In this document: positions 3,221-59,307 of the stretch, one piece after another
Numbering within the stretch: position 1 is the first letter of the stretch
How the letters are laid out: every line of letters starts with the position of its first letter
Notes under the pieces: model-generated
The model's input: only the letters and a program-made list of their open reading frames with translations
What the model was told of the DNA's origin: nothing
Database searches by the model: none
Assembly (NCBI RefSeq): GCF_055900595.2
Contig: NZ_JBVWEU010000003.1
Source of the DNA: a plasmid
Length of the DNA: 64,000 nucleotides
Reading direction: 5' to 3' (one strand)
Translations under genes and position numbers: made by a program

Positions 3221-3844
3221 ATGGCCAGGAATCAGGAAAAGAAAACGCCCGTCATTGTGGTGAAAAAACGTCGCGTTATTTCACCTCCTGTCGTCGATAA
3301 AACAGAGACTGTCATTCCGCCTGTACCGGAAGTGGCGGTACCACCGGCAGCTGCTGATGCGCAGCTGCCAGCCCCCATCCCGGATGCGTCTCCTGCGCCT
3401 GCTGCCGTCGGAAAGAAAAGGAAAGGAAGACCACCACGCAGGCTCCTCAGAGAGCACTGGACACGGGAGTTCACCGACCAGTGCATGGAAAAGGTCAAGG
3501 CAATTTTCCCGCATCTTCGCGCTGAAGGCGGCGGTTTTCTGCCTCTCAGGGTCGGTATCTCCCGCGATATTACTGCCTGGCTGGCTGAGCACCCTGAAGC
3601 CGGACTCACCCGGGATGAATGGGACTGTGCCGTATCCTGTATCACCTCCCGGCGTGTCTATCTGTTGCGTACCGCTGTCACCGGTGCCACCCGCTATGAC
3701 CTCGATGGTAAGCCTGCCGGGCAGGTTTCTGAGGATGAGGCAAAAAATGCTCAGCGCTGGCTGGCCATCCGGGACCGCCGGTGGGAGAAAAAACAGGCCG
3801 CTCTGGCCGGGGCAACAGGCGGGGAGAATACGACCGCAAAATGA
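3221..3844 (+). CDS. FinO/ProQ-like RNA chaperone domain protein (tentative)
   Basis: 207 aa; Pro/Ala-rich N-terminus with basic KKRKGRPPRR patch, then a C-terminal domain that resembles FinO by pattern; family assignment is from memory only. Confidence 0.4.
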   Translation: MARNQEKKTPVIVVKKRRVISPPVVDKTETVIPPVPEVAVPPAAADAQLPAPIPDASPAPAAVGKKRKGRPPRRLLREHWTREFTDQCMEKVKAIFPHLRAEGGGFLPLRVGISRDITAWLAEHPEAGLTRDEWDCAVSCITSRRVYLLRTAVTGATRYDLDGKPAGQVSEDEAKNAQRWLAIRDRRWEKKQAALAGATGGENTTAK

Positions 3845-3947: not shown

Positions 3948-4931
3948 TTACTGTTTACGGTGCTGATTCCCTTCGCCGTAAATTTGACAATCTCCGCGCC
4001 CGGGGTGCGGAGATTGTCGCTCGTTATATGGTTTGAATGCCTGTTTTTGCTGTTTCATTTCATTTATCAAAAAATCAGTAAATGCTCTTACTTTGGGGGA
4101 CAATTGCCTGTTAGTCGGCCACATTATCATTAAGTCTCCAAAAGGGGCCATGAACTCGGTCAACACGGGATATAATTCACGTGATTCTAATGCATCATGA
4201 GCAACATATATGGGAAGGTGGGCCAGACCTAACCCATTTACTGCTGCATATAACCCCGCGTATGTGTTATTGAAAATGAAGTTTTGAGGTAGTGTTATAT
4301 TTTTATATGGTGGAATGAATGACCATGGAGCGATCTTTCCATTAGATGGATATTTAAAATGAATACAGCTATGTTCTGATAATTCCGATGGGATTTGTGG
4401 AGCGCCATATCTGTCTAAATAGGAGTAACTACCACATACAACGAAATGTTGCTTCCCTATATATCTGCTTACTAACCTTGAGTCTACGGGATTACCGCTT
4501 CTTATTGCTATATCTATACCTTCTTTTATGATATCCACAACATGGTCTTCAAAGTCAATATCTAAATGGATTTCAGGATATAATAAATTAAACTTTGATA
4601 TTAACGGCATTAATAGTTTATGCCCAAATATATGAGGTGCTGTGATGTGCAAGGTTCCCCTGGGAGTACACATATTTGATGAAATGATTTCTTTTGCACT
4701 ATATAGTTCATCTAATATTAAACAGCATCGTTCATAAAACAAGAAACCATTTTCTGTTAAACTAATACTTCTTGTTGTTCTATGGAAAAGTCTTGTTCCA
4801 AGTTCATCTTCCAGCTTTGATATACTTTTTGCAATAGCGGAGGGAGATAGCCCAAGAACTCTGGCAGCTTGTGCGTAGCTATTATGTTTTACCGCATATA
4901 CAAATGCGGTTATACCTTGGAAACCCTTCAT
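3948..4931 (-). CDS. LysR-family transcriptional regulator
   Basis: N-terminal HTH (YAQAARVLGLSPSAIAKSISKLEDELG…LFHRTTR) plus ~300-aa co-inducer domain; divergent from the adjacent operon; AT-rich codon usage. Confidence 0.85.
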   Translation of the reverse strand: MKGFQGITAFVYAVKHNSYAQAARVLGLSPSAIAKSISKLEDELGTRLFHRTTRSISLTENGFLFYERCCLILDELYSAKEIISSNMCTPRGTLHITAPHIFGHKLLMPLISKFNLLYPEIHLDIDFEDHVVDIIKEGIDIAIRSGNPVDSRLVSRYIGKQHFVVCGSYSYLDRYGAPQIPSELSEHSCIHFKYPSNGKIAPWSFIPPYKNITLPQNFIFNNTYAGLYAAVNGLGLAHLPIYVAHDALESRELYPVLTEFMAPFGDLMIMWPTNRQLSPKVRAFTDFLINEMKQQKQAFKPYNERQSPHPGRGDCQIYGEGNQHRKQ

Positions 4932-5053: not shown

Positions 5054-5906
5054 ATGGTAGGTATATTTATGAGTTACATGCCCAAGAAAATTGAAGGGGC
5101 TTCTGTTGATGAGCTTGTGCTAAAAGGGGTTAAGCATATTATTAATAATGGCGAGAGAATATCCTCAAGAGCTGGAGGGGCTATTCAGGATTACGGAGTT
5201 ATATATGTTTTGTCCGATCCCCTAAACAGAGTTCATTCCTTGAGAAACGGAGCTATGAGGTATTTTGCAAGAGAGTTGATTGCCTATTTTTCAGGGAGTC
5301 TAAAGGTTGAGGATGGATTGGCTAAGGCATCAAAGTTTTGGGCATCGCTTGCAGATGAGAACGGGAATATAAACTCAAACTATGGATACTATGTGTTCCA
5401 TGAGAAAATAGATAAATATACAAATCAATATAATTGGGCTAAATGTGTCTTGTTAAAAAACAAAGATACCAGACGAGCCATAATCAATATAAATCAGGTT
5501 CGTCATAAGTCTGACACGAAAGATTTTCCCTGTACTGTAAGTATTCAGTTTTATATTAAAGATAATGAGTTGTACTGCGAAACTAATTCTCGAAGCACAG
5601 ATATTATAACAGGATTGCCATATGATATGGGATTTTTTTTCGTTTGTTCATGAGTTAATGTGGAAAGATCTTATCGAGAATGGATTGGAAGATTTGAAAC
5701 TTGGACCAACTATAATGAAAACAACATTTACTCAGATTTATGATAAAACAATAAATAAAGCATATGAAATTCTGAATAATGAATGTAATGATCTTAATGT
5801 TATAAATATGCCAAGTGTAATATCTGCTCAGGATACTTTAAATGATATAATGTCAGGAAGTTCGAAAACGGATGTTGTTAAGTGGATATATAAATATGCA
5901 GAGTAA
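5054..5906 (+). pseudogene. Thymidylate synthase-family enzyme (ThyA / dNMP C5-hydroxymethylase-like), split by a +1 frameshift in a T8 run near 5633-5640
   Basis: ORFs 5054..5653 and 5622..5906 together align with ThyA: DTRRAI versus DSRR, FPCT versus catalytic PCH, GLPYDMGFFSFVHELMW versus GLPFNIASYALLVHMM. Seven T's would restore a single ~280-aa frame. Confidence 0.7.
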
Positions 5907-6438
5907 AAAGAAAATATTCTTAACATCAAACAATCCAGCTAAAGTAGAAGCTGTCAAAATAGTTTGTTCTAAATTATTTGATGTTTTTTCTATCAAGCAT
6001 GAGGATATAGCGTCAGGTGTTAGTGATACTCCATTTACAGATGATGAGGCTATTTTAGGATGTTATACAAGAATTAATTCATCTGAGCATAATTTAAGTG
6101 AGCATGTGGATTACATTATTGCATTAGAAGGATTGATAGAGAAAAAATCATTTGGACAATTTGTTTATGGATGGGCTGTTATAAAGGAAATGGAAAGTTC
6201 GAGTTTTTTTTATGGATGTAGTGGGAAAGTTTATTTGCCAAATCGTGTTATGCAAAAGATGTCTTCCCAGAAAAGATTGTCTGATGTTGTTCTTGAGTTG
6301 TATCCAGGAACAAGTGCTGATGAGTTAAAGTTGATAGGAACGAATGGTGTATTGACCGGTGGACTATATACGAGAGCGATGGAGTTCGAGACAGCTTTAT
6401 TGTGTGCTTTCGGTTCTATGATGACAAGTAAAGTTTAA
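5896..6438 (+). CDS. YjjX-like non-canonical purine NTP phosphatase (inosine/xanthosine triphosphatase family)
   Basis: Aligns along its length with my recollection of E. coli YjjX (NNPAKVEAV; SGVSDTPF; YGWAVIKE; C-terminal GVLTGGLYTRA). Start taken at the internal ATG (MQSKKK). Confidence 0.6.
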   Translation: MQSKKKIFLTSNNPAKVEAVKIVCSKLFDVFSIKHEDIASGVSDTPFTDDEAILGCYTRINSSEHNLSEHVDYIIALEGLIEKKSFGQFVYGWAVIKEMESSSFFYGCSGKVYLPNRVMQKMSSQKRLSDVVLELYPGTSADELKLIGTNGVLTGGLYTRAMEFETALLCAFGSMMTSKV

Positions 6439-6453
6439 AAAAAAGGTGATATT

Positions 6454-7734
6454 ATGTTATTTAAAAAAGTAAATTTTCTTGATCATCATGATATGAGCTT
6501 TAGAAGAGGTGATATCCGTGTGATGGGTAATATGATCGTACAAATAGATGATGATCTGCAACCTATTGGAGATGAAGAGTTTGTTACATTGGATCATATG
6601 ATTGTTTTACCTGGGATTGTAAATGCACATCTACATCCAAGTAAGGAGATATATGGATGTTTATATGAATCAATGAACATAAATGATGTTCTTAACTCTG
6701 TTCATAAAAACAATAAAATGGAAACATCTGATGTGCAGTTTTTGTCTTCAACTAAAGCGTTAGTAAATGCATTAAAGAAAGGTGTTACAACATTAGGGTT
6801 ATTTACTAGTAGAGTTGATAGCGATTATGTTGCTGCTAAATGTGTTGGTGGGCGTTATGTTATAAATTTTTGTCAGAGTAATTACTGGTGCGCTGATGGT
6901 GTTCCTCCTGAAAGAATAGAGATCAGAGATATTATTAAAAACTACGATTTATATAGTAAACAAAAAAATGATTCTAAGATAATATTCTCAGCTGCAACAG
7001 CTTCTGAGTTATCTGCTGATGACCAATTGATCAAAAAATGTCATGATTATGCAGCAAGTAACAATTCAAGGTTTTTTATCCACATACATGAAGGTGCTGA
7101 ACAGGTTGCAAAACATAAATTACATTTTAATGAAAGTGGCATTAGTCGATTGTTTAGACTAGGGGTTTTAGATGAATATACAACTCTAATCCATGCAACT
7201 CATCTCTTGGATAGTGATCTTGATATTATTACCAGATCTCACTGTAATATAATTCATTGCCCTGTGAGTAATAGCTTTGTTACAGCGGGAACAATGCCAT
7301 TAAGAAAAATGATATCAGTAAATAGATTTGTTGGATTGGGTACTGATGCAGCTATGGTTAATCCAGTTAATGACATTACATTTGATGCACTTTTTGCTCT
7401 ATATCATCATGGTGACAGAAATTCTAACTTGAAAGTATCTGCCAGTGAAATAATAAATATGATCACATTTAAAGGAGCTGGAGCATTAGGATTGGATAAT
7501 ATAGGACTAATTAAAGCTGGTTATAAAGCAGATCTTATTTTTTTTGACTTGGAGAATATTGATGGCGATTATATAAATACGCCCGTATCTATATTGAAAA
7601 TGTTGCATAAAGAAACACCTATACATGTAATGGTTGATGGCAAGTTTATTATATACGAACATATGTTCGTGAATTGTAATTTTAATGATGAGCTTGAAAA
7701 ATACGCTTCTTTAAAAAAAGAGATTGTGAAATGA
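6454..7734 (+). CDS. Metal-dependent amidohydrolase-superfamily deaminase (cytosine/guanine/MTA-deaminase-like)
   Basis: 426 aa with N-terminal HxH metal motif (VNAHLHP) and downstream HATHL, HCPVSN, GLGTDA motifs typical of nucleobase or nucleoside deaminases. Confidence 0.75.
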   Translation: MLFKKVNFLDHHDMSFRRGDIRVMGNMIVQIDDDLQPIGDEEFVTLDHMIVLPGIVNAHLHPSKEIYGCLYESMNINDVLNSVHKNNKMETSDVQFLSSTKALVNALKKGVTTLGLFTSRVDSDYVAAKCVGGRYVINFCQSNYWCADGVPPERIEIRDIIKNYDLYSKQKNDSKIIFSAATASELSADDQLIKKCHDYAASNNSRFFIHIHEGAEQVAKHKLHFNESGISRLFRLGVLDEYTTLIHATHLLDSDLDIITRSHCNIIHCPVSNSFVTAGTMPLRKMISVNRFVGLGTDAAMVNPVNDITFDALFALYHHGDRNSNLKVSASEIINMITFKGAGALGLDNIGLIKAGYKADLIFFDLENIDGDYINTPVSILKMLHKETPIHVMVDGKFIIYEHMFVNCNFNDELEKYASLKKEIVK

Positions 7735-8339
7735 AAAATGTTGCATTTATTTTTTCAGGGAGAGGTAGTCTCGTTACAACTGTTTTGGATGCTATTAGAG
7801 ATAGTAAGACACAATCCAGATTATCCTTAATGATTACAAATAATGTCGAGTTTGATGAGAAATTTACCCCTAAGGGTGTTGATTTGGTTGTTTTAGACCG
7901 GAATGAGTATGTGAAAAGGAATGATTTTGAGAAAAAGATAATATTTGAGTTGAAAAAAAGAAATATTAGCTTAGTTATTCTTGGAGGTTTTAAATTCATT
8001 TTTTCAGAAAAATATGTTGATCTTTTTGGAAACATTACAATAAATACACATCCATCATTACTTCCTGCTTTTCCTGGAGATAAGGCGCAACAAAGGGCTT
8101 TAGCTAAAGGAGTTATATATACTGGTGCAACAATTCATTTTATAAATGAGCATGTTGATGATGGACCTATTATTGACCAAGAGGTTGTCAGGGTTGAAGA
8201 GGGTATGACGGAGTATGAGCTAAAGGAACAAATTATTGAAGTTGAAAAGATAATGATTTACAGATCTGTTAAGGCATTTCTCGACGGAAGATTATATTTA
8301 AAAAACAATCAGGTTATATATGGGGTTGATGATGTATAA
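7731..8339 (+). CDS. PurN-like formyltransferase (GAR transformylase fold)
   Basis: 202 aa; N-terminal FIFSGRGS, NTHPSLLPAFPG (Asn/His catalytic pair) and DDGPIIDQ (catalytic Asp) match the PurN family; ATGA overlap with the upstream gene. Confidence 0.8.
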   Translation: MKNVAFIFSGRGSLVTTVLDAIRDSKTQSRLSLMITNNVEFDEKFTPKGVDLVVLDRNEYVKRNDFEKKIIFELKKRNISLVILGGFKFIFSEKYVDLFGNITINTHPSLLPAFPGDKAQQRALAKGVIYTGATIHFINEHVDDGPIIDQEVVRVEEGMTEYELKEQIIEVEKIMIYRSVKAFLDGRLYLKNNQVIYGVDDV

Positions 8340-9519
8340 GATCAAAAATGATATACTTGCAGCTAGTTGTGTTGCCAGTATTCTGTTTGTGGCTATTATA
8401 TGTTTAGGATTGTCACTGGCAATATTACCCTTGTTTGTGAATAAAATATTACACTTGTCGCCTTTATTCGTTGGAGGAGTTATCTCTGTTGAGTCGATCT
8501 CTACATTGTTATCAAGAGCATCTTCTGGACGGTATTCAGATAAAAATGGCCCCAAAAAAGGAATGATTGCTGGTCTTACATTGATTGTTTTATCTGGTGT
8601 TCTTGTTTGTATATCTTTTGTTCTTAAAGAGAACGTTATTGCTTCATATATAGTGCTTATTATATCACGTATTATTATGGGGGTTGGTGAGAGTTTGGTT
8701 TTTACATGTAGCGGCACATGGCCTATAGGACTGGTTGGCAGGGAACATGCCGGGAAAATAATGTCATGGGTGGGGATTGCTATGTTCATGGGGCTGGCTT
8801 TAGGAAACTATATTGGTGTCTGGTCATTCTATAAATATAATATTATGGTGTCGGCCATTAGTATTACATTGTTTCCATTATTAGGGTTTATTATTGTCTG
8901 TATTGTCAGAAGTGTTCACTATCATCCCGATGTTATTTCTCCATCAATTGTTTATGGCATAAGAAAAATATGGAGAGCAGGAACAGGTTTTGCTCTCGCA
9001 AATATAGGATATGCATCAATCACCACATTTTTAGTTTTGCTTTTTATCGATAATGACTGGGGGAGATATAGTGCTCTTGGTTTATCTCTTTTTGGTATTG
9101 GGTATGTTACTTCCCGCTTAACAATAGGATGGGCGGCCGATCATGTAGGGTTAAAAACAACAATATTTTCACTTGGTCTTGAAGCTTTAGGATTATTATT
9201 TGTTGGTTTGTCAGTTAATATGTATCTGTCTATGTTTGGGGCTTTCTTAACAGGCTTCGGATTATCAATGGTGTATCCACTGTTGGCATTACCTGCAATT
9301 AAAAACATGCCAGAAGAAAATATTGGATTTGCAATTAGCCTTTATGAATCATGCTTTGATATTGGCATACTCATTTCCGGTTTTTTAGGCGGTCTGATTG
9401 TATCTTGCTTTGGGCTTCAATATATATTTTACTTTTCTTTTATATGTTGTCTGATCGCGATTCCTCTTTCTGTTATGGCATATCAGGTATCATCCACGTT
9501 AAATAAAGAATGCAGATAA
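8320..9519 (+). CDS. MFS transporter (likely efflux)
   Basis: 399 aa, about 12 predicted hydrophobic helices with glycine-rich loops; overlaps the purN-like stop, so probably co-transcribed. Confidence 0.8.
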   Translation: MGLMMYKIKNDILAASCVASILFVAIICLGLSLAILPLFVNKILHLSPLFVGGVISVESISTLLSRASSGRYSDKNGPKKGMIAGLTLIVLSGVLVCISFVLKENVIASYIVLIISRIIMGVGESLVFTCSGTWPIGLVGREHAGKIMSWVGIAMFMGLALGNYIGVWSFYKYNIMVSAISITLFPLLGFIIVCIVRSVHYHPDVISPSIVYGIRKIWRAGTGFALANIGYASITTFLVLLFIDNDWGRYSALGLSLFGIGYVTSRLTIGWAADHVGLKTTIFSLGLEALGLLFVGLSVNMYLSMFGAFLTGFGLSMVYPLLALPAIKNMPEENIGFAISLYESCFDIGILISGFLGGLIVSCFGLQYIFYFSFICCLIAIPLSVMAYQVSSTLNKECR

Positions 9520-10561: not shown

Positions 10562-10591
10562 GTAAGCGGCTCGTCAGAACCGTATTGATAT

Positions 10592-12163
10592 TTACTGAGA
10601 GCTCAGATCAACTTTCCAGGGCAACAGATCGCGTACCCGGTTTGCCGACCAGTCCTGGATATGTTCAATGACGTAACGCAGCCACTTTTCTGGCTCCACA
10701 TTGTTCAGACGGCATGTGCCGATCAGCGAGTACAACACCGCCGCATGTTCACCACCGCTGTCGGAACCCGCGAACATCCAGTTTTTCCGGCCTACGGCCA
10801 CTCCCCGTAAGGCGTTCTCTGCGATGTTGTTGTCGATTTCCACCCAGCCATTACTGCAGTACACGTTCAGTGCATCCCACTGTTTCAGCAGGTATGCGAA
10901 CGCTTTTGCCGTATCTGAGTGACGCGACAGTGTTTTCATCTGAGTCTGTATCCAGTCGTACAGTGACTGCATCAGTGGCGCAGCTCTGGCTTTTCTTGCC
11001 GCCAGACGCTGTTCTGCTGAACATCCCCGGACCTCTGCCTCGATTGCATACAGTTCACCGATACGCTGCAGGGCTTCCGTGGTGATATCGGTAGGCGCTC
11101 TTGCATGCACATCGTGGATTTTTCTCCGGGCATGGGCCATACACGCGGCTTCCGTTATTCTGCCGGATTCGTATAACGCCCGGTAACCACCGTAAGCATC
11201 GGCCTGAAGCACACCGCTGTAACCGGCCAGGTGATTCTGTGGATGGATACCTTTCCGGTCCGGGCTGTACGCGAACCAGACCGCCGGGGGCATCTGTGAA
11301 CCGGTGTTACGGTCATCACGGACGTAAACCCACAGCCGGGCAGTTCTTGTTTTACCACTGCCCGGCTCCTGGACCGGAACGGGGATATCATCCGCATGGA
11401 CTTTACCGGGCATCAGCACATACTGGCGCAGCACGTCATACAGCGGCTCCAGCAGTTCAGCAACGGCACTGGTCCAGCGCCCCAGCGTGGCGCGGCTCAG
11501 TTCCACGCCCTGACGACGGTATATTTCTGACTGGCGGTATAACGGCAGATGGTCTGCATACTTCCCGGTGACGATATGAGCCAGAAGCCCCGCTCCGGCA
11601 TAACTGCGTGCAATGGGTTTTGAAGGTACTGGTGCCTGCACGATATGGTCGCACCGGCAACAGGCCAGTTTCGGACGTTGTGTTTCGATAACCTTAAAGG
11701 CGCTGCTGATAAGCTCCAGTTGCTCTGACACATCACATCCCAGAGAACTGAGTTCGCCACCACAAGCCGGGCAGCATTCCTCTTCCGGCCGGATAACCCG
11801 GGATTCACGGGGAAGTGCAGCCGGTAACGGTTTACGGGCTGAAGACTGGCGCAGGGAAGATGGCAGTGCCGGGTCATATTGCTCACCCAGTGTTTCCGCC
11901 ATTTCTTCCTGAAGTGCGCTGATTCGCTCCTGTGCTTCCTGTATCTGTCGTTCGGTTTTTGCGCGAAGTTTTTCTGAGCTTTTACCGAACTGCATGCGCT
12001 GCAGTTTTGCAACCAGCGCCTTCAGCCGGTTGATTTCAGAAGCATAAGCCGCCACCCGCTGTGAGAGCAGGCAATTGTATTCGGCCATCTGGCGGATGGT
12101 GTCCTGTTGCGCCTGCAACAGTGCCCGCAGGCGGGCGTTCTCATGAGCAAGTGAGGTGTCCAT
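10592..12163 (-). CDS. tnpC: IS66-family transposase TnpC
   Basis: 523 aa with an N-terminal coiled coil, a Cys cluster (CPACGG…CCRCDH) and a DDE-type core characteristic of IS66 TnpC. Confidence 0.9.
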
Positions 12164-12182
12164 ATCCTCACTTTACAACGGG

Positions 12183-12530
12183 TTATATGCGGATTCCAGC
12201 GCGTTCCGTTCGTTTTGGATGTTTCCAGTCGATGCCCTCAAGAAGCATGGATAACTGGGCCGGAGTAAGGTGCACCTTGCCGTCACGGGTGACCGGCCAG
12301 ACGAAGCGGCCCCGCTCCAGGCGTTTGGTGAAGAGGCACAGTCCGTCGCTGTCAGCCCACAACACTTTTATCTGGTCACCCCGGCGTCCGCGGAAGATGA
12401 ACAGGTGTCCGGAGAACGGGTCATTCTTCAGGACGTTCTGAACTTTTGAGGCCAGGCCGTTAAAGCCATTTCGCATGTCGGTGATACCGGCAACCAGCCA
12501 GATACGCGAACCTGCAGGGAGAGATATCAT
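12183..12530 (-). CDS. tnpB: IS66 Orf2 (TnpB)
   Basis: 115 aa with the conserved IS66 Orf2 signature (WLVAGITDMRNGFNGLA…GHLFIFRGRRGDQIKVLWAD). Confidence 0.9.
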   Translation of the reverse strand: MISLPAGSRIWLVAGITDMRNGFNGLASKVQNVLKNDPFSGHLFIFRGRRGDQIKVLWADSDGLCLFTKRLERGRFVWPVTRDGKVHLTPAQLSMLLEGIDWKHPKRTERAGIRI

Positions 12531-13207
12531 CAGTGGCTGCTCCCTTTCATTTCGCGGATAAGTGTCTGTAATAAGGCCGGTGTCAGTTCACCTTTCAGCC
12601 TGAGAGTTCCGGCCGGCAGAACCAGCTCACAGCACAGACTGTCGGACGGTGTATTTATCTGCTCTGGTTCCTGTGCCGGAGCCGGGATTTTATTATCCGG
12701 CTCCGGCGTTAACGTCACGGGAAGCAGTGCAGGCATATTTTTTCCGGAAGGCAGCAGGCCACCTTTCCGGTATTGATGGCGCCAGTTGAAGAGCAGGTTA
12801 TCGTTGATTCCGTTTTCACGGGCGATCTGCGCCACACAGGCTCCGGGCTGCAGTGACTGCTCCACTAAGGCGATTTTAAACTCATAAGGAAAATTAGGCC
12901 GCCGGGGACGTTTTTTTACCACCGGGACTTCGGACATAACGGTGTTTTCAGTAAGTACGACAGGTACTGTGGAGGCACTCCCGTAAAGACGGGCATCAAG
13001 TTCCCGCTCCGACATACCTGCGGGAAGAGGCCATGAAAGGCCAGCTTTGCGGAAGCGCACGAACATACCACAAACTGTTGATTTTGGTACGCCCAGGCGA
13101 CGTCCGGCCACAATCCGTGGTAAATGTTCTTCAAAGTGAAGACGTAAAGCTTCGGTGATCCAGGTCCGGTATTCCATACGATAGTGTCCATTAAAAATGA
13201 TGGACAT
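12530..13207 (-). CDS. tnpA: IS66 Orf1 (TnpA-like) with N-terminal HTH
   Basis: 225 aa; sits first in the three-gene IS66 arrangement and overlaps Orf2 by one base. Confidence 0.7.
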   Translation of the reverse strand: MSIIFNGHYRMEYRTWITEALRLHFEEHLPRIVAGRRLGVPKSTVCGMFVRFRKAGLSWPLPAGMSERELDARLYGSASTVPVVLTENTVMSEVPVVKKRPRRPNFPYEFKIALVEQSLQPGACVAQIARENGINDNLLFNWRHQYRKGGLLPSGKNMPALLPVTLTPEPDNKIPAPAQEPEQINTPSDSLCCELVLPAGTLRLKGELTPALLQTLIREMKGSSH

Positions 13208-13395
13208 TATTTTTGTGGAGCCGGAGGAAACAGACCAGACGGTTCAGATGAGGCGCTTACGATATAGACAACCTCCATTGTCTTGTTTCCATCACAGACA
13301 TAGGCTTTTTTTGAGATTTCTTGTGTGGCAGCGGAGGCTGTCATACAGGAGCAGGCGAGAATGAGTGCAAGGACGGCTGAAGAATATTTTTTCAT
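13207..13395 (-). pseudogene. mliC-like lysozyme inhibitor lipoprotein gene, N-terminal part interrupted by IS66
   Basis: Signal peptide with lipobox (LILACSCMTA) then YVCDGNKTMEVVYI; the original frame leaves at the target duplication and the ORF runs on into IS66 sequence. Confidence 0.6.
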
Positions 13396-13848
13396 AACAA
13401 CTCCTTCTGTAGGTTAAAAAGAGAGGTGCTTTGCCGGAGTTATATTAATAATTCATTCATCAGAGAAAACTTTTTTTTGTTACGGCAATAATAATGAGAC
13501 AATTCCAGGTAAGCCCGGTGCCGTTCTACGGTTGCACCGGGAGGGCTGGAACTCAGTGCGGAGATTTTTTACCATCCTGGTGATATAAATGATCATGTGC
13601 TGTTTTGCGGTCCCTGTATATGCCCATTAGACTGGCCCCCTGAATCTCCAGACAACCAGTATCACTTAAATAAGTGATAGTCTTAATACTAGTTTTTAGA
13701 CTAGTCATTGGAGAATGTAATGAACGCATCCCAACTATTTGAGTATGAAGCCGGGGTTGGCAGGAAAAGTGTGGAGCCTCGCAGATTTCCGGCATCATAG
13801 TGCCCAATACGGGATGCATAAAGCTCCCTCAGACTGGAGACTCCACAA

Positions 13849-44111: not shown

Positions 44112-44208
44112 GAAAAACAGGCGGCGTTTATATTACGGAATAATATCGTTAAGTTGAGTTTATGTTTCCGGTAATGTAATGCTTCACGCAGAGGGTAATG
44201 ACTCCAAC

Positions 44209-44712
44209 TTACTGATAGTGTTTTATGTTCAGATAATGCCCGATGACCTTGTCATGCAGCTCCACCGATTTTGAGAACGACAGTGACTTCCGTCCCAGCC
44301 TTGCCAGATGTTGTCTCAGATTCAGGTTATGTCGCTCAATGCGCTGAGTGTAACGCTTGCTGATAACGTGCAGCTTTCCCTTCAGGCGTGATTCATACAG
44401 CGGCCAGCCATCCGTCATCTATACCACGACCTCAAAGGCCGACAGCAGGCTCAGAAGACGCTCCAGTGTGGCCAGAGTGCGTTCACCGAAGACGTGCGCC
44501 ACAACCGTCCTCCGTATCCTGTCATACGCGTAAAACAGCCAGCGCTGACGTGATTTAGCACCGACGTAGCCCCACTGTTCGTCCATTTCAGCGCAGACAA
44601 TCACATCACTGCCCGGTTGTATGCGCGAGGTTACCGACTGCGGCCTGAGTTTTTTAAGTGACGTAAAACCGTGTTGAGGCCAACGTCCATAATGCGTGCA
44701 CTGGCGCGACAT
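44209..44712 (-). pseudogene. insB: IS1 insB' split by an in-frame TAG where canonical IS1 has TGG (…FEVVV*MTDGW…)
   Basis: Two consecutive same-frame ORFs (97 + 69 aa) separated by a stop at the position of the conserved Trp codon. Confidence 0.7.
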
Positions 44713-44906
44713 CCGACGCCATTCATGGCCATATCAATGATTTTCTGGTGCTTACCGGGCTGAGAGGCGGTGTAAGTGAACTGTAGTTGCCATGTTTTAC
44801 GGCAATGAGAGCAGAGATAGCGCTGATGTCCGGCAGTGCTTTTGCCGTTACGCACCACGCCTTCAGTAGCGGAGCAGGAAGGACATCTGATGGAAATGGA
44901 AGCCAC
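44631..44906 (-). CDS. insA: IS1 InsA
   Basis: [43 protein letters not shown]… is the IS1 InsA sequence. Confidence 0.9.
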
Positions 44907-44967
44907 GCAAGCACCTTAAAATCACCATCATACACTAAATCAGTAAGTTGGCAGCATTACCTTTCAT

Positions 44968-47133
44968 TTATTGTTTTATTCCGTCTTTATCATCTCCATT
45001 AATATTTTTCAGTTTTTCTTCACGAACGCCAGGTGTTCTGCGCATATTGGTATTACCTCCGGCAATAATATCTTTGACTGAAGAAACCATATTCCCCAGC
45101 ATATTAACGCCGTCACGTCCGCCCAGAAAATTAATTACATGGTCAGGCAGATAAGCCTGAAGTGCAAAAACGGCGGCAACCAGCGTGGTACAGACGCGGG
45201 CATAAATCATCAAAAATCCTGCCATGCTGAACACGCCCGTCACAGAATTTATCTGGACATTCATCAGCGCGGCGGCAAACAGCGCATTCAGGATTGTGCC
45301 GCCGGCCACGATGGCGACCGATGCAAAAAAGAACCCGAATACCATCAGCAGCGGTCTGATCATGCTGTCTATCAGGTAGATGTAACCGTAAGCGGCCCGG
45401 CTTCCCCGGTCCTGGCTTGTTCCCAGATGGGTGGCCGCCCAGAGGGGGCCAGCAGCACATCCAATCAGTACGCTAACTATCCAGTTACCAATGCCGGTCA
45501 TCCAGAAGATAAACGGAATAAACGGCAGGTAAATGGATAACGAAAAGCCGGCACAGAACAGCAAAAACAGCAGGAAGTAGAGCGGTGGAGCGGCTGCTTC
45601 CAGAAAAGCCTTTGCGGCGTCAGATAATCCGCTGACGGCATTGACCAGTCGACCAAAAACGGAGTTGCTGCCGGCCGTGGAAAGTACCCTGACGGTGGTA
45701 TAACCCGCCCAGATGGTTTCGGTTGTAACCATGGTGTAATCGCCAATGTTTTTCATTTTTATCAACGGATTTAGTTGATTAGTTGTGGTACCTGTACCGC
45801 TCAGATAAGTGGCTGTCCAGTTAGTCATTCTTGTTAGGTTAAACCCAATCAATTTTAAGATTGCTGATTGAGGGTCTTGAGTTTTAGATGCGTGGTATTC
45901 ACTGGCAGAGGTGGCGGTTCCCAGTGCAGGAGTATACGCTGAGTTCTGCAACTGTGCCTGGTAAGCTCCTCTGACTTCCTTCAGGAACTCCGTATCCCCG
46001 GCTTCGCCCAGTGACGAGACGCCACTCACAGTAGGAGCGCGGTTGGCCAGGTCTTCCAGTCGCTGGTTGGCGGTGGCAAAGGTCTGGTACCAGGCACCCA
46101 GGGCAACCCAGCCGTAGGTGGTCAGGTAGGATTTCAACTGCTCCCTGCGCTCAGTTTCTGCGTTATCTGCCGGCAACGCCTTCTGCACCGTTTCTTCATA
46201 CCGGTTGGCTGCCTTCTGAATACGGCTTTCAATATCCGGCAGGTTGCCGTTACCCGTGTCGCGTCGGGTCCGGTACGCTGACACAAATTCCTGTGCTGCG
46301 CTGTCCAGGTCACGGAGCATGGTATCCATGGCGGAGCGTTGTGCCGTCAGGACTCCCTGATACTCCGTTTCAATGAAGGGATTGAAAAAATGGGCCAGCG
46401 CGGACTGGTTGTTGCTGCCATTCCCTTTCACGGTGAGACTCACACTCCCGCAGGTGGCACTGCCATTTGAAACGGTGACGGTATACCTGCCGTTCTCTGT
46501 CCGTGAGGATTCGCTCATGGGCGGCGTTGATGAACGTGCGGTACGGTTAAAGTCATCGAGGCCCGTATTCATGGCGTGTTTGCACAGCGCCATCTCCAGA
46601 ATTCCCCGTGCTGCCGTGCGGGTGGAGACATGTACTGGCTGTACGGTCATTGAATAGCCTTCAGCGATGTTTTCTGCAGCAGTCTGAACCATGATATTGG
46701 CGGAACCGATGCCCATGATGGATGCGCCCCAGAGCATGACCAGTTGTGCCAGGCTCCAGCCGGAAGCGGTGGGCACAATCATCATAAAACCGCTCACAAT
46801 ACTGAGCATTCCGACGACGTCCCGTCCGTTGTTAAAGACATTGCCCTGGTGGCCGGTGCGGACAGCATGGCGGATTCCAATAAACAGGAACCAGACTATC
46901 CCCATAATGGCGATAATTGCGTTAAACACCATGAACAGGTTGCCGATAATGGTGTTGCTGCTGGCTGTCAGGGGATTTGTGACCACATCACCAAAAATGG
47001 TGACCAGTGCCTGGCGCGACAGGTCATCCGGATTGGTGGCGGCGCTCACAATGTCCTGATAGGTGACGAATGCCTGTGCAGGTACGGCAGCCAGCGCCAG
47101 ACCCGCACTCAGTGCTCTGGGTATGATTTTCAC
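44968..47133 (-). CDS. traY: TraY-like polytopic inner-membrane transfer protein
   Basis: 721 aa with many transmembrane segments; position before traX/W/U matches the I-type tra order. Confidence 0.65.
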   Translation of the reverse strand: MKIIPRALSAGLALAAVPAQAFVTYQDIVSAATNPDDLSRQALVTIFGDVVTNPLTASSNTIIGNLFMVFNAIIAIMGIVWFLFIGIRHAVRTGHQGNVFNNGRDVVGMLSIVSGFMMIVPTASGWSLAQLVMLWGASIMGIGSANIMVQTAAENIAEGYSMTVQPVHVSTRTAARGILEMALCKHAMNTGLDDFNRTARSSTPPMSESSRTENGRYTVTVSNGSATCGSVSLTVKGNGSNNQSALAHFFNPFIETEYQGVLTAQRSAMDTMLRDLDSAAQEFVSAYRTRRDTGNGNLPDIESRIQKAANRYEETVQKALPADNAETERREQLKSYLTTYGWVALGAWYQTFATANQRLEDLANRAPTVSGVSSLGEAGDTEFLKEVRGAYQAQLQNSAYTPALGTATSASEYHASKTQDPQSAILKLIGFNLTRMTNWTATYLSGTGTTTNQLNPLIKMKNIGDYTMVTTETIWAGYTTVRVLSTAGSNSVFGRLVNAVSGLSDAAKAFLEAAAPPLYFLLFLLFCAGFSLSIYLPFIPFIFWMTGIGNWIVSVLIGCAAGPLWAATHLGTSQDRGSRAAYGYIYLIDSMIRPLLMVFGFFFASVAIVAGGTILNALFAAALMNVQINSVTGVFSMAGFLMIYARVCTTLVAAVFALQAYLPDHVINFLGGRDGVNMLGNMVSSVKDIIAGGNTNMRRTPGVREEKLKNINGDDKDGIKQ

Positions 47134-47205
47134 GATAACTCCGGAACCGAAGGGATGCAGGGCATCAGCCTCCGGAATGAGGAAAAGGAATTGCAGACCG
47201 GACGG

Positions 47206-47775
47206 TCAGTACTGCCGGTGGGTAATGGCCAGCCATGTGGCCTGTTTCCAGCCGTGCCGGGCCTGCAGGTAATCGGGGAAGGTGCCCTGTTCGTCCTCGC
47301 TGACCCGCCGTTCATTCAGTTGCCAGAGGCGGTATGACACAATCAGGGTTTTTGAGGCACACAGTGCTGCAATGGCACTCATCAGTAACAGGCAGGCCAG
47401 TATACGTATCAGGGTGATGGCCGGCAGCGCTGTGGCAGCAAGGGCCATGCCGCACAGCAGAAGTACCGGTATCATCATCAGCCAGAATCCTGTCCGCCAG
47501 AACATCCTGCGACGTCGCAGACGCCGATCCAGTTCGTTGACCGTAAGGCCGCTGGCCCTGACGGCTTCTTCCCAGGTCATACAGACCGGAATCTCCGGTT
47601 GCCGGTCGGGCATGAGGCGCTTCAGGCGCGTTTTATGCTGGCCCAGCATATGGCGGCAGCTGCGCAGCATCCACCGGGTTTCGGCCAGTGGTGCGAACAG
47701 GTTTATCCCGATGTCACCGATGCGGCGGAGACGGGGGGCCGGTTTTTTTTTGTCGGTGCTGTTGTCGTCTTTCAT
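47206..47775 (-). CDS. traX: TraX-like transfer protein
   Basis: 189 aa with two central transmembrane helices; assigned by position and size. Confidence 0.5.
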   Translation of the reverse strand: MKDDNSTDKKKPAPRLRRIGDIGINLFAPLAETRWMLRSCRHMLGQHKTRLKRLMPDRQPEIPVCMTWEEAVRASGLTVNELDRRLRRRRMFWRTGFWLMMIPVLLLCGMALAATALPAITLIRILACLLLMSAIAALCASKTLIVSYRLWQLNERRVSEDEQGTFPDYLQARHGWKQATWLAITHRQY

Positions 47776-48977
47776 CTTACGCTCCCCTGGCTCATGGCCT
47801 GTGACAGTTCACCGAGACGCTGTCCGTAATACTGTCGTGCCGCCAGTGCCAGCTGCTGCCCGGCGATAACATTACCCTGGCGTATCTGCTCTTTCAGGTC
47901 GTTCATCTGCCAGTTCAGCAGGGCGGTAGTGCGCAGCAGTTCACGGAGAAGGTTATCGCCTTCCATGCCCTGCAGATCCTGCTGCCAGTCGGTGTTTGCA
48001 TAGCGTCTGCCGGCTTCAAAGGCCTCAAACTCCCGCTGGCTCATGTGACCACGGGTGCGGGCCTCTGATGATGCGGTCCGGTCAAAATATGCCGCAGCGG
48101 ATGGTGACTGCAGGGCTTCAGTCAGTGCTCCACGGGTGGCCTCATTAGGGGTACTGTCAGCTATCAGTGACAGTTGCGGATGAGAGGCGGCATCGATGAT
48201 GCCGTTGTATTCATTCTGCAGGCCCACATACGTGCGCCCGGTCTGTGTTCCCACTTCACCTTTCCCCGGGGCACGACCCGCTGACGGTCTGGCGGTGTTT
48301 TTCATGTAAGCCGTGGCAGCATCAATCTGTTTCTGATCCCAGGTGAGGGCGGCAGGGGTATCTGCTGTGCCTGCACCCTGATAGAGCGATCGCACCTGGC
48401 TGTCTCCGCCCGGCAGCTCGCCCACGGCAGGGCAGACATCGGTTCCGCCAAAGCGGGCATATTCAGCTTCCGTGCAGTAACCGGCATGAATGCCTGCACT
48501 GTCATATGCCTCGCGGGTTGGTGAGTCTGCTGCCCGGGAGAGACGTTCACGGATGGGTTTACTGCTGACGCCTCCTCCCTGACTCAGACGTGCAGCCGCA
48601 GACGCTGCTGCACGGCGACTTTCAGCTGCAACTCCGGAGGCGGATTCACTGCAGATGGAGTCCGGCACGCTGAAGCTCTTCCGGGCTTCCTCAAGCCGGC
48701 GGGTTTCATTACTGAATATCATCTGCTGACGGGTGGCCTGCCCATCCTGTGCGATGACAGAGGCCAGCTTCTCTGAACTCTGGTTGATGGCTGTGCCGGT
48801 GGCTGTCTGCATACGGACCATCTCTGCCATCACGCCCTGAATAGCGGCCAGCTCCGGCATGATTTGTGTGGTGACAGGCTGGCTGGCCACTACGGTCACA
48901 GAGTAGGCATGGGTGGCAGGAATAACCGCACAGCCTATCAGGAGTGCAAGCAGTGTGGTTGCAGATTGTCTTTGCAT
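47772..48977 (-). CDS. traW: TraW-like lipoprotein
   Basis: Start taken at MQRQSATTLLALLIGCAVIPATHA (signal/lipobox-like); about 400 aa. Confidence 0.55.
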   Translation of the reverse strand: MQRQSATTLLALLIGCAVIPATHAYSVTVVASQPVTTQIMPELAAIQGVMAEMVRMQTATGTAINQSSEKLASVIAQDGQATRQQMIFSNETRRLEEARKSFSVPDSICSESASGVAAESRRAAASAAARLSQGGGVSSKPIRERLSRAADSPTREAYDSAGIHAGYCTEAEYARFGGTDVCPAVGELPGGDSQVRSLYQGAGTADTPAALTWDQKQIDAATAYMKNTARPSAGRAPGKGEVGTQTGRTYVGLQNEYNGIIDAASHPQLSLIADSTPNEATRGALTEALQSPSAAAYFDRTASSEARTRGHMSQREFEAFEAGRRYANTDWQQDLQGMEGDNLLRELLRTTALLNWQMNDLKEQIRQGNVIAGQQLALAARQYYGQRLGELSQAMSQGSVR

Positions 48978-49555
48978 TCTTTTTTCTCCGTTTTCGGGGG
49001 ATACAGGATGTCTGGTACGCGATGACTGAGTGATTCCGGCAGCGGAGCCAGCGGGAAACACTGGAAGCGGCGCGTGATCCATCCCTGACGGTTACGGTTA
49101 TCGATGAGCGTGAAGGTACGACGCTTCACGCGTTTCAGTGTCGGGGTGTCGCTTTCCATGACCGGCCAGTCTCCGGCTGTGAGTGCCGGTGTGCCGGGGA
49201 CATCCGGCCACAGCCAGGTGTTGTCAGACATCAGCGCAGTGAGTGGTGCGGGCAGAAGCCAGTGAATGACATGCTGTATATCAAAAGGCGGTCGCTCCGG
49301 CACGTTAACCTGCCAGGTGGCCGTTGTAATCAGCGTGCCTGTCTCTCCGGGCAGGGCCAGGCGAATACCACTCATCTCCCCGTCAGCCCGTCTGTCACTG
49401 GCAAAAATGACCCGGGGATTGGGGGACGGTCGCAGTGTGAAGCAGGCGGACGGCAGGGTGAAGCTGAAACTGTCACCGTCCACGCGCAGCGTTTTCAGGA
49501 AGACCTGTCCCCGTGCAGGACGCCGGCAGCGGGGAGTGATGTGTATGCTGTACAT
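48938..49555 (-). CDS. traV: TraV-like transfer protein
   Basis: 205-aa ORF between traU and traW; assigned by position only. Confidence 0.4.
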   Translation of the reverse strand: MYSIHITPRCRRPARGQVFLKTLRVDGDSFSFTLPSACFTLRPSPNPRVIFASDRRADGEMSGIRLALPGETGTLITTATWQVNVPERPPFDIQHVIHWLLPAPLTALMSDNTWLWPDVPGTPALTAGDWPVMESDTPTLKRVKRRTFTLIDNRNRQGWITRRFQCFPLAPLPESLSHRVPDILYPPKTEKKECKDNLQPHCLHS

Positions 49556-58611: not shown

Positions 58612-59307
58612 TCAGATTCCTGCTGCGGCGTTACGGGAAACCATCTGGCTGATTTCCATGCCGCCGGGTTTGATTCGTGGGTCCACGCGCCGGACAGTGA
58701 TTTCAAAGGTGAAGGCCTGCTCGGGGCGGGTGCTGGTCTGACCGACCAGACGCATCCTGACCGGATACTGGAATTTCCAGAACCAGATGCCGTTTTCCAT
58801 CTGGCCCTGATTCACCAGCGTGCCGGCCCCGATAGTGGTTGTGAGGTTAAATTTCTCCTTTTTAATGGTGTCCAGAATGTTGGAGGCCTGAAGAGCATTC
58901 ACATAGCCGGCAAAACCGGCTTCGGAAAAGCGTGGAGCCAGTGTCGTGATTTGTTTCCTGTAGTGGACAAAATCCAGATTAAAAGCTTCGCTCAGCGTCA
59001 TGCTGCCAAACGTCATGACGTCGCTCTGACTCCAGGCTGGCTGACTGGTGGGGGCCAGGCGGACCAGCCGGCCATTGTCGGTGGCAAAGTATTCGCGCGT
59101 CACGTCGGTGGCATGCCAGTACTGTATGATATTGCCGGTCAGACTGATGACGAGAGCTGCGCTGCTACACAGCAAGGCCCTGACCAGTCCGGGAACCAGT
59201 GCGGCCCGTTGTTCTGACTGTGCGATGGTTCTGAGCACGGGGTTATAAATATCTCCGCTGTTATCCGCTTCCGGTGAGACAGGGGAGGTGGGTTGTGCTT
59301 CGCTCAT
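58612..59307 (-). CDS. traM: TraM-like protein (DotI/IcmL-type)
   Basis: 231 aa with an N-terminal transmembrane helix; assigned by position and size. Confidence 0.6.
   Translation of the reverse strand: MSEAQPTSPVSPEADNSGDIYNPVLRTIAQSEQRAALVPGLVRALLCSSAALVISLTGNIIQYWHATDVTREYFATDNGRLVRLAPTSQPAWSQSDVMTFGSMTLSEAFNLDFVHYRKQITTLAPRFSEAGFAGYVNALQASNILDTIKKEKFNLTTTIGAGTLVNQGQMENGIWFWKFQYPVRMRLVGQTSTRPEQAFTFEITVRRVDPRIKPGGMEISQMVSRNAAAGI

Follow-up and report, generated by a model that had tools for sequence, protein, structure and literature searches.

Thymidylate synthase (ThyA, EC 2.1.1.45) and the deoxycytidylate 5-hydroxymethyltransferase of phage T4 (gp42) differ in the residue that specifies the substrate base, with Asn177 of ThyA serving for uracil and Asp179 of gp42 selecting cytosine. 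The ThyA-like CMP hydroxymethylases MilA and BcmA, of the mildiomycin and bacimethrin pathways, stand at the start of small pathways that convert a cytosine nucleotide into a modified pyrimidine, which is secreted. Homopolymers that alter a reading frame are known from the phase-variable loci of Haemophilus, Neisseria and Campylobacter, where the length of a tract within the coding sequence decides the frame, and from the slipped-strand frameshift pseudogenes of bacterial plasmids and genomes, where expansion of an A/T run by one base is followed by a stop a few codons downstream. The gene described here has features in common with each of these systems. It lies on a plasmid contig (NZ_JBVWEU010000003.1, assembly GCF_055900595.2), of which a stretch of 64,000 nucleotides, referred to throughout as the window, was analysed. 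A preliminary description of this DNA had proposed that a T homopolymer splits a thymidylate-synthase-like gene, and had left genuine inactivation, a slipped-strand phase-variation switch for the whole pathway and a homopolymer sequencing error as alternatives. Taken together, the results presented below make it probable that the split reflects a real, recent and clonally inherited frameshift of one T, and that this is ordinary decay as opposed to a dedicated switch. The features of the split gene are as follows.

5069-5653, plus strand: ORF A, 194 amino acids from ATG 5069 (199 from the alternative upstream ATG 5054); the N-terminal 190 residues of a ThyA-superfamily enzyme plus four out-of-frame residues (FVCS), including catalytic Cys155, R175/S176/D178 and the specificity residue Asp186
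5633-5640, plus strand: T8 tract; the native T7 encodes Phe189-Phe190-Ser191 (TTT TTT TCG), and the added T shifts the frame
5651-5653, plus strand: premature TGA stop made by the frameshift
5622-5906, plus strand: ORF B, +1 frame, 94 amino acids; from 5641 onwards it supplies the last 88 residues of the enzyme, among them invariant E195, G212 and the TFTQIY motif

The homopolymer consists of exactly eight T residues in the window sequence. When one T was deleted in silico, the two ORFs became one continuous protein of 283 or 278 amino acids (depending on the start codon used), as had been predicted, and this repaired protein was 100% identical to intact RefSeq proteins. The Pfam model PF00303 (Thymidylat_synt) matched it over residues 20-247 (E=9.7e-22), thereby spanning the junction. 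Conversely, when the intact protein of the related plasmid pLS45-2 was searched against the window by tblastn, two matches of 100% identity were obtained, one for residues 1-190 (frame 2) and one for residues 189-278 (frame 3). Homologues encode a single ORF. The break falls within the segment GLPYDMGFFSF, which is invariant in the ThyA-like family. ORF B begins at a fortuitous ATG at 5622, with AGGA located 7 nt upstream. The exact 194-aa product of ORF A is on record at NCBI (HFT1107314.1) and also occurs in Logan assemblies, and the 94-aa product of ORF B is predicted in two Logan assemblies. The two ORFs at 5054-5906 should be annotated as a single disrupted gene.

The identification of this gene as thyA held for the superfamily and fold but proved too specific. 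The protein shares with ThyA the PF00303 fold, the catalytic Cys and the RS.D motif; however, its scores against the NCBIfam ThyA models (61.5, 61 and 44.9 bits) are far below the respective equivalog cut-offs (327, 405 and 108). The best match among solved structures was T4 dCMP hydroxymethylase (1B49; E=1.4e-16), followed by E. coli ThyA (8e-11) and MilA (5b6d; 1e-6), the last being a detectable homologue that is nonetheless less similar in sequence than gp42. The catalytic Cys had been correctly placed in the first half of the gene: C155, within 'DFPCT', aligns with C148 of gp42 and is invariant in the family. D186 pairs with D179 of gp42, and the Glu of the REL motif (E69) also aligns with its T4 counterpart (PDB 1B49/1B5D). 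Both D186 and E69 are invariant in the family, completing the set of residues expected of a cytidylate hydroxymethylase, and at the position of the uracil-specifying Asn of E. coli ThyA (N177) the invariant Asp186 is found instead. Since Asp186 is invariant and pairs with the cytosine-selecting residue of gp42, we infer that the enzyme is a cytosine-nucleotide ((d)CMP) C5-hydroxymethylase or methylase and not a thymidylate synthase. The comparison with gp42 is a local alignment confined to residues 64-224, and the substrate and chemistry are predictions from sequence. The intact protein is named 'thymidylate synthase' in RefSeq, a name which the parent protein should not carry. Relatives at 50-70% identity are found in Xenorhabdus, Pectobacterium, Pantoea, Erwinia, Salmonella and Burkholderia, as well as in Vibrio, Bacillus, Haemophilus, Patescibacteria and Dependentiae.

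The gene is the first of a five-gene operon, which is preceded by a divergent regulatory gene. The remaining features, together with the cassette loci compared across phyla, are listed here.

3948-4931, minus strand: LysR-family regulator, divergent, presumed regulator of the operon; 100% identical to WP_086795425.1, with NCBIfam LysR/YafC-like matches
5896-6438, plus strand: YjjX-like NTPase (NTPase_I-T/DUF84), its start overlapping the stop of the ThyA-like gene
6454-7734, plus strand: cog0402-type amidohydrolase/deaminase with an in-frame T8 at 7538-7545; relatives are TRZ/ATZ, MTA/SAH deaminase and 8-oxoguanine deaminase
7731-8339, plus strand: PurN-like formyltransferase (TIGR00639, 144 bits; cut-off 150)
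8329-9519, plus strand: MFS transporter, putative exporter of the pathway product
Cassette loci: window 5069-9519; L022 8001-13171; L024 8001-13066; L026 8001-14608

The overlap between the ThyA-like stop (5904-5906 in the normal frame) and the NTPase start at 5896 is consistent with translational coupling. The operon represents a mobile cassette that recurs in several phyla with a conserved gene order: the ThyA-like enzyme (Asp-type) comes first, followed by a YjjX-like NTPase, a noncanonical pyrimidine 5'-nucleotidase resembling YjjG, the cog0402 amidohydrolase, the PurN-like formyltransferase and finally an MFS/EamA exporter. The YjjG-like gene is missing from the E. coli plasmid version, the Bacillus cytotoxicus cassette has an additional CTP synthase, and that of Haemophilus influenzae adjoins integrase and relaxase genes. 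Such surroundings (NTPase, deaminase, formyltransferase, exporter) are not those of thyA. They also differ from those of gp42, which belongs to a phage DNA-modification module, whereas the present gene lies in a cellular or plasmid-borne operon that includes an exporter gene. The general plan is that of the MilA and BcmA pathways, although neither an N-glycosidase of the MilB/BcmB type nor a methyltransferase is present here. From this gene content, the probable function of the cassette is the synthesis and export of a pyrimidine nucleoside or base modified at position 5. A role as an anti-phage defence system was rejected, as PADLOC matched none of the five operon proteins. In a full-text search of the literature no description was found of this gene combination, or of IncK2 plasmids carrying the ThyA-like gene, and the cassette thus appears to be undescribed in the searchable literature.

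The length of the T run was surveyed in 18 datasets of the E. coli IncK2/Z plasmid family. Fourteen of these had T7, the T8 allele being present in the window and in three further assemblies. The closest complete plasmids, pLS45-2 (NZ_CP095450.1) and p1106-IncFII (NZ_MG825371.1), are E. coli IncK2/Z conjugative plasmids from chickens, and both have T7 and an intact annotated CDS. PLSDB contained only two related records and the set of complete E. coli RefSeq genomes only one (the window's own record is absent from both), all with T7. T7 was further seen in ten more NCBI assemblies and in the one contig that was matched when JGI metagenome contigs were scanned with a gapped pattern allowing T5-T11. 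Exact-sequence look-up of the truncated 194-aa and 94-aa products returned GCA_043978215.1, SRR27226256 (plus one further sample) and SRR27886137. The T8 allele itself is carried by GCA_043978215.1, an NCBI TPA assembly, and by the Logan assemblies of SRR27226256 and SRR27886137; one of these three could be the window's own isolate, and their sequencing technology is inferred. All three were 100% identical to the window across the 5.7-kb operon, with a single flank SNP in one (L006). Moreover, GCA_043978215.1 has in common with the window an IS66 junction at 10574, which is, from the sequence comparison, a marker of the T8 plasmid lineage. Among the 18 datasets no T6 or T9 allele was found, nor was T8 found on another plasmid backbone. 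The nearest T7 operons (L012, L014, L015 and L019) differ from the window by this one T over 5.7 kb, and no compensating second-site indel was seen, the single T being the only difference between the operon and its intact haplotypes. A single-base difference restricted to a single haplotype fits one recent event.

The T8 allele was not the only lesion in the operon. In ERZ17914487 and similar contigs (L008), the same ThyA-like gene carries a TTA>TGA change at codon 129 (window-equivalent position 5454), which is, as read from the sequence, an independent nonsense inactivation in another plasmid lineage. In four further assemblies a contig ends within the gene, three (L009-L011) stopping at 5453/5454 and one (L028) beginning at 5446. 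The contig ends overlap by 9 bp at 5446-5454 (TGTCTTGTT), the pattern of a target-site duplication, so that an IS insertion is probable, and no IS sequence was found on these four contigs. Finally, in GCA_023896945.1 (L013) the in-frame T8 of the amidohydrolase gene at 7538-7545 is contracted to T7, resulting in a frameshift and a truncated product of 373 aa. The genes of this island have a GC content of about 0.34, and homopolymer slippage is the commonest indel type in this AT-rich island. Among the operon SNPs that distinguish plasmid variants, 10 are synonymous, 2 are missense (both in the MFS gene) and 1 is nonsense; that nearly all are synonymous indicates purifying selection until recently, the disruptions being young tip mutations. 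The lesions are, on this sequence evidence, the recent decay of a formerly selected operon, that is, ordinary accessory-gene decay. A further run, A8 at 6437-6444 between the NTPase and amidohydrolase genes, was A6 in two loci (L002 and L008) and A9 in two others (L020 and L021); as it lies just upstream of the amidohydrolase start, its length could affect the spacing of the ribosome-binding site.

The first gene takes three of the four independent lesions yet makes up 19% of the operon length. The probability of at least three falling within it by chance is about 0.02, a post hoc value that is based on small numbers. Given this bias, the first enzymatic step could be costly in E. coli. A more far-reaching proposal is that the operon encodes an undescribed, widely mobile pathway whose product is a cytosine or uracil nucleoside, modified at position 5 and secreted, and, at the same time, that its first enzyme is costly or toxic enough for its knock-out to be repeatedly favoured. 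We regard this combined proposal as speculative and rather unlikely; were it true, the T7/T8 tract would be a revertible, slippage-leaky 'dimmer' and not a dead end.

An improbable explanation is that the tract forms a contingency locus, with a reversible slipped-strand T7/T8 ON/OFF switch having been selected to toggle a costly pathway. The tract sits in the first gene of the operon, within the coding region, and its length sets the frame (T7 ON, T8 OFF), just as in the phase-variable loci of Haemophilus, Neisseria and Campylobacter. T7 and T8 are both present among near-identical plasmids, homopolymer lengths also vary at 6437-6444 and 7538-7545, and the first gene is disrupted by some route in about 40% of the sampled plasmids, hinting that its loss can be advantageous. 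However, T8 is monophyletic, being limited in the 18 datasets to one haplotype with the same IS66 junction, and neither T6 or T9 alleles nor other backbones bearing T8 accompany it there, so that the OFF state is confined to one clonal lineage and repeated switching is not evident. Furthermore, the tract is not maintained in orthologues. The Gly-Phe-Phe-Ser motif is invariant in the family, while the DNA encoding it is not: the orthologue codons read TTT TTC TCT where the E. coli plasmid has TTT TTT TCG, and the synonymous TTC interrupts and shortens the run to T6 in Pectobacterium and to T5 in Haemophilus and Bacillus. Other lineages show irreversible lesions unrelated to tract length, in the form of the nonsense codon and the probable IS insertion, and a run of 7-8 A/T nucleotides is short for a contingency tract in mismatch-repair-proficient E. 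coli. A dedicated phase-variation switch, as had been suggested for the pathway, is consequently not supported by the sequences compared. Set beside ordinary frameshift pseudogenes, with their clonal inheritance and the other types of lesion found in the same operon of the population, nothing essential differs in the locus studied here, save that a run of eight T suffices for transcriptional slippage to give partial rescue.

It is very unlikely that the gene is intact, with a true run of T7, and that the extra T arose as a homopolymer error in sequencing or assembly. Long-read and 454 chemistries are well known to err at runs of eight T, and the two closest complete plasmids have T7. Against this, T8 was assembled separately in the one TPA and the two Logan assemblies. 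An assembly-wide homopolymer error was also ruled out, as all indels relative to pLS45-2 were classified and, when the proteins of the approximately 60 CDSs shared with this plasmid were searched by tblastn, the ThyA-like gene was the only one found to be frameshifted in the window. Other isolated homopolymer differences from pLS45-2 occur at 2844, 15878, 34296, 38000 and 53514; all are intergenic, a location that suggests evolution filtered by selection and not random sequencing error. Comparison of run length among related plasmids, which had been put forward as a check, thus fails to bear out a simple error, and that alternative is essentially refuted, whereas real inactivation is supported by the recurrence of T8 on one haplotype. 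We are fairly confident, on the basis of these sequence comparisons, that T8 is a genuine mutation carried by a clonal plasmid sub-lineage, and 'polishing away' of the allele is not warranted.

The most probable sequence of events begins with a slipped-strand replication error that added one T to the native T7 at codons Phe189-Phe190-Ser191. The gene affected stands first in an AT-rich operon of five genes, which the E. coli IncK2/Z conjugative plasmid gained by horizontal transfer. On this reading the mutation is recent and has been inherited clonally within one plasmid sub-lineage, as one of several independent recent loss-of-function lesions that the operon appears to have suffered across the plasmid population. 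It cuts the ThyA-superfamily enzyme at residue 190 of 278. Although the 194-aa product retains the nucleophile Cys155 and the substrate-binding residues R175/S176/D178/D186, the 88 C-terminal residues that are lost include the family-invariant positions E195, L196, G212 and the TFTQIY motif, and loss of activity would be expected. The first committed step of the pathway would therefore be abolished or strongly reduced. Termination at 5653 would also remove translational coupling to the next gene, unless ribosomes initiate at the ATG of ORF B (5622). A polar effect on the downstream genes is thus plausible and the mutation probably affects them, though translation of ORF B, preceded as it is by AGGA, could preserve the coupling.

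The truncation may nevertheless be incomplete in its effect. In a systematic reporter study, E. coli RNA polymerase was found to delete a U at poly(T8), resulting in about 10% restoration of a +1-frame reporter, and no slippage was seen with T runs shorter than 7 (PMC6260861). According to comparative work, runs prone to slippage are usually 9 nt long, and a length of 8 is productive in certain cases (PMC1088944). Given the U deletion by E. coli RNA polymerase at T8 in that reporter, whose sequence context is a different one, the T8 allele is probably leaky rather than null, and it can also revert by the same kind of replication slippage that is proposed to have produced it. At the level of translation, the wild-type peptide would likewise result if tRNA-Phe in the P site slipped by +1 on the U run. 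A -1 ribosomal frameshift on this run was ruled out on geometric grounds, the downstream frame being +1 (or -2) relative to ORF A.

A programmed recoding site, at which transcriptional slippage or a +1 ribosomal frameshift would set a low enzyme level or generate two products, would make use of these same properties, T8 being sufficient for measurable U deletion by the E. coli polymerase and tRNA-Phe being able to re-pair in the +1 frame. However, all homologues and 14 of the 18 plasmid datasets have a single ORF in place of the two, a conserved stimulatory element is not evident at the site, and the allele is separated from the intact haplotype by one base, leaving us to consider programmed recoding more improbable still than sequencing error. 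Least probable of all is an active split enzyme, reassembled from the separate translation products of ORF A and ORF B. The two jointly cover all residues of the protein, and ORF B has its own ATG (5622), preceded at 7 nt by AGGA; however, the break lies inside the invariant core segment GLPYDMGFFSF, no natural split form occurs among 340 homologues and nothing suggests selection for such a form. With decay by a genuine one-base frameshift as the preferred reading, the T7 and T8 plasmids constitute a natural near-isogenic pair, one base apart over the operon, which could be used to identify the product of the pyrimidine-modifying cassette and the burden that it places on the host.

Several further differences were noted elsewhere on the plasmid. 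The IS66-family element of the window is 2.7 kb in length (10574-13261), has ORFs of 225, 115 and 523 aa on the minus strand, and sits inside an MliC-like lysozyme-inhibitor gene. At 59205 it is pLS45-2 that has the broken copy (C3>C2) of a 231-aa transfer-region (tra) ORF, which is intact in the window (58612-59307, minus strand, corresponding to 12839-13533 in locus L004); PLSDB has no CDS at this place for pLS45-2. Comparison of window positions 44193-44962 with pLS45-2 positions 44429-49186 showed that the window is without approximately 4.7 kb comprising an HTH gene, two hok/gef loci and excA, and an IS91 and a DUF1281 gene carried by pLS45-2 are likewise absent from the window. Lastly, the T7 contig SKEN01000455.1 (L029, 2780-4463) has an insert of approximately 1.7 kb relative to the window near 3470, within a ProQ/FinO-like gene.
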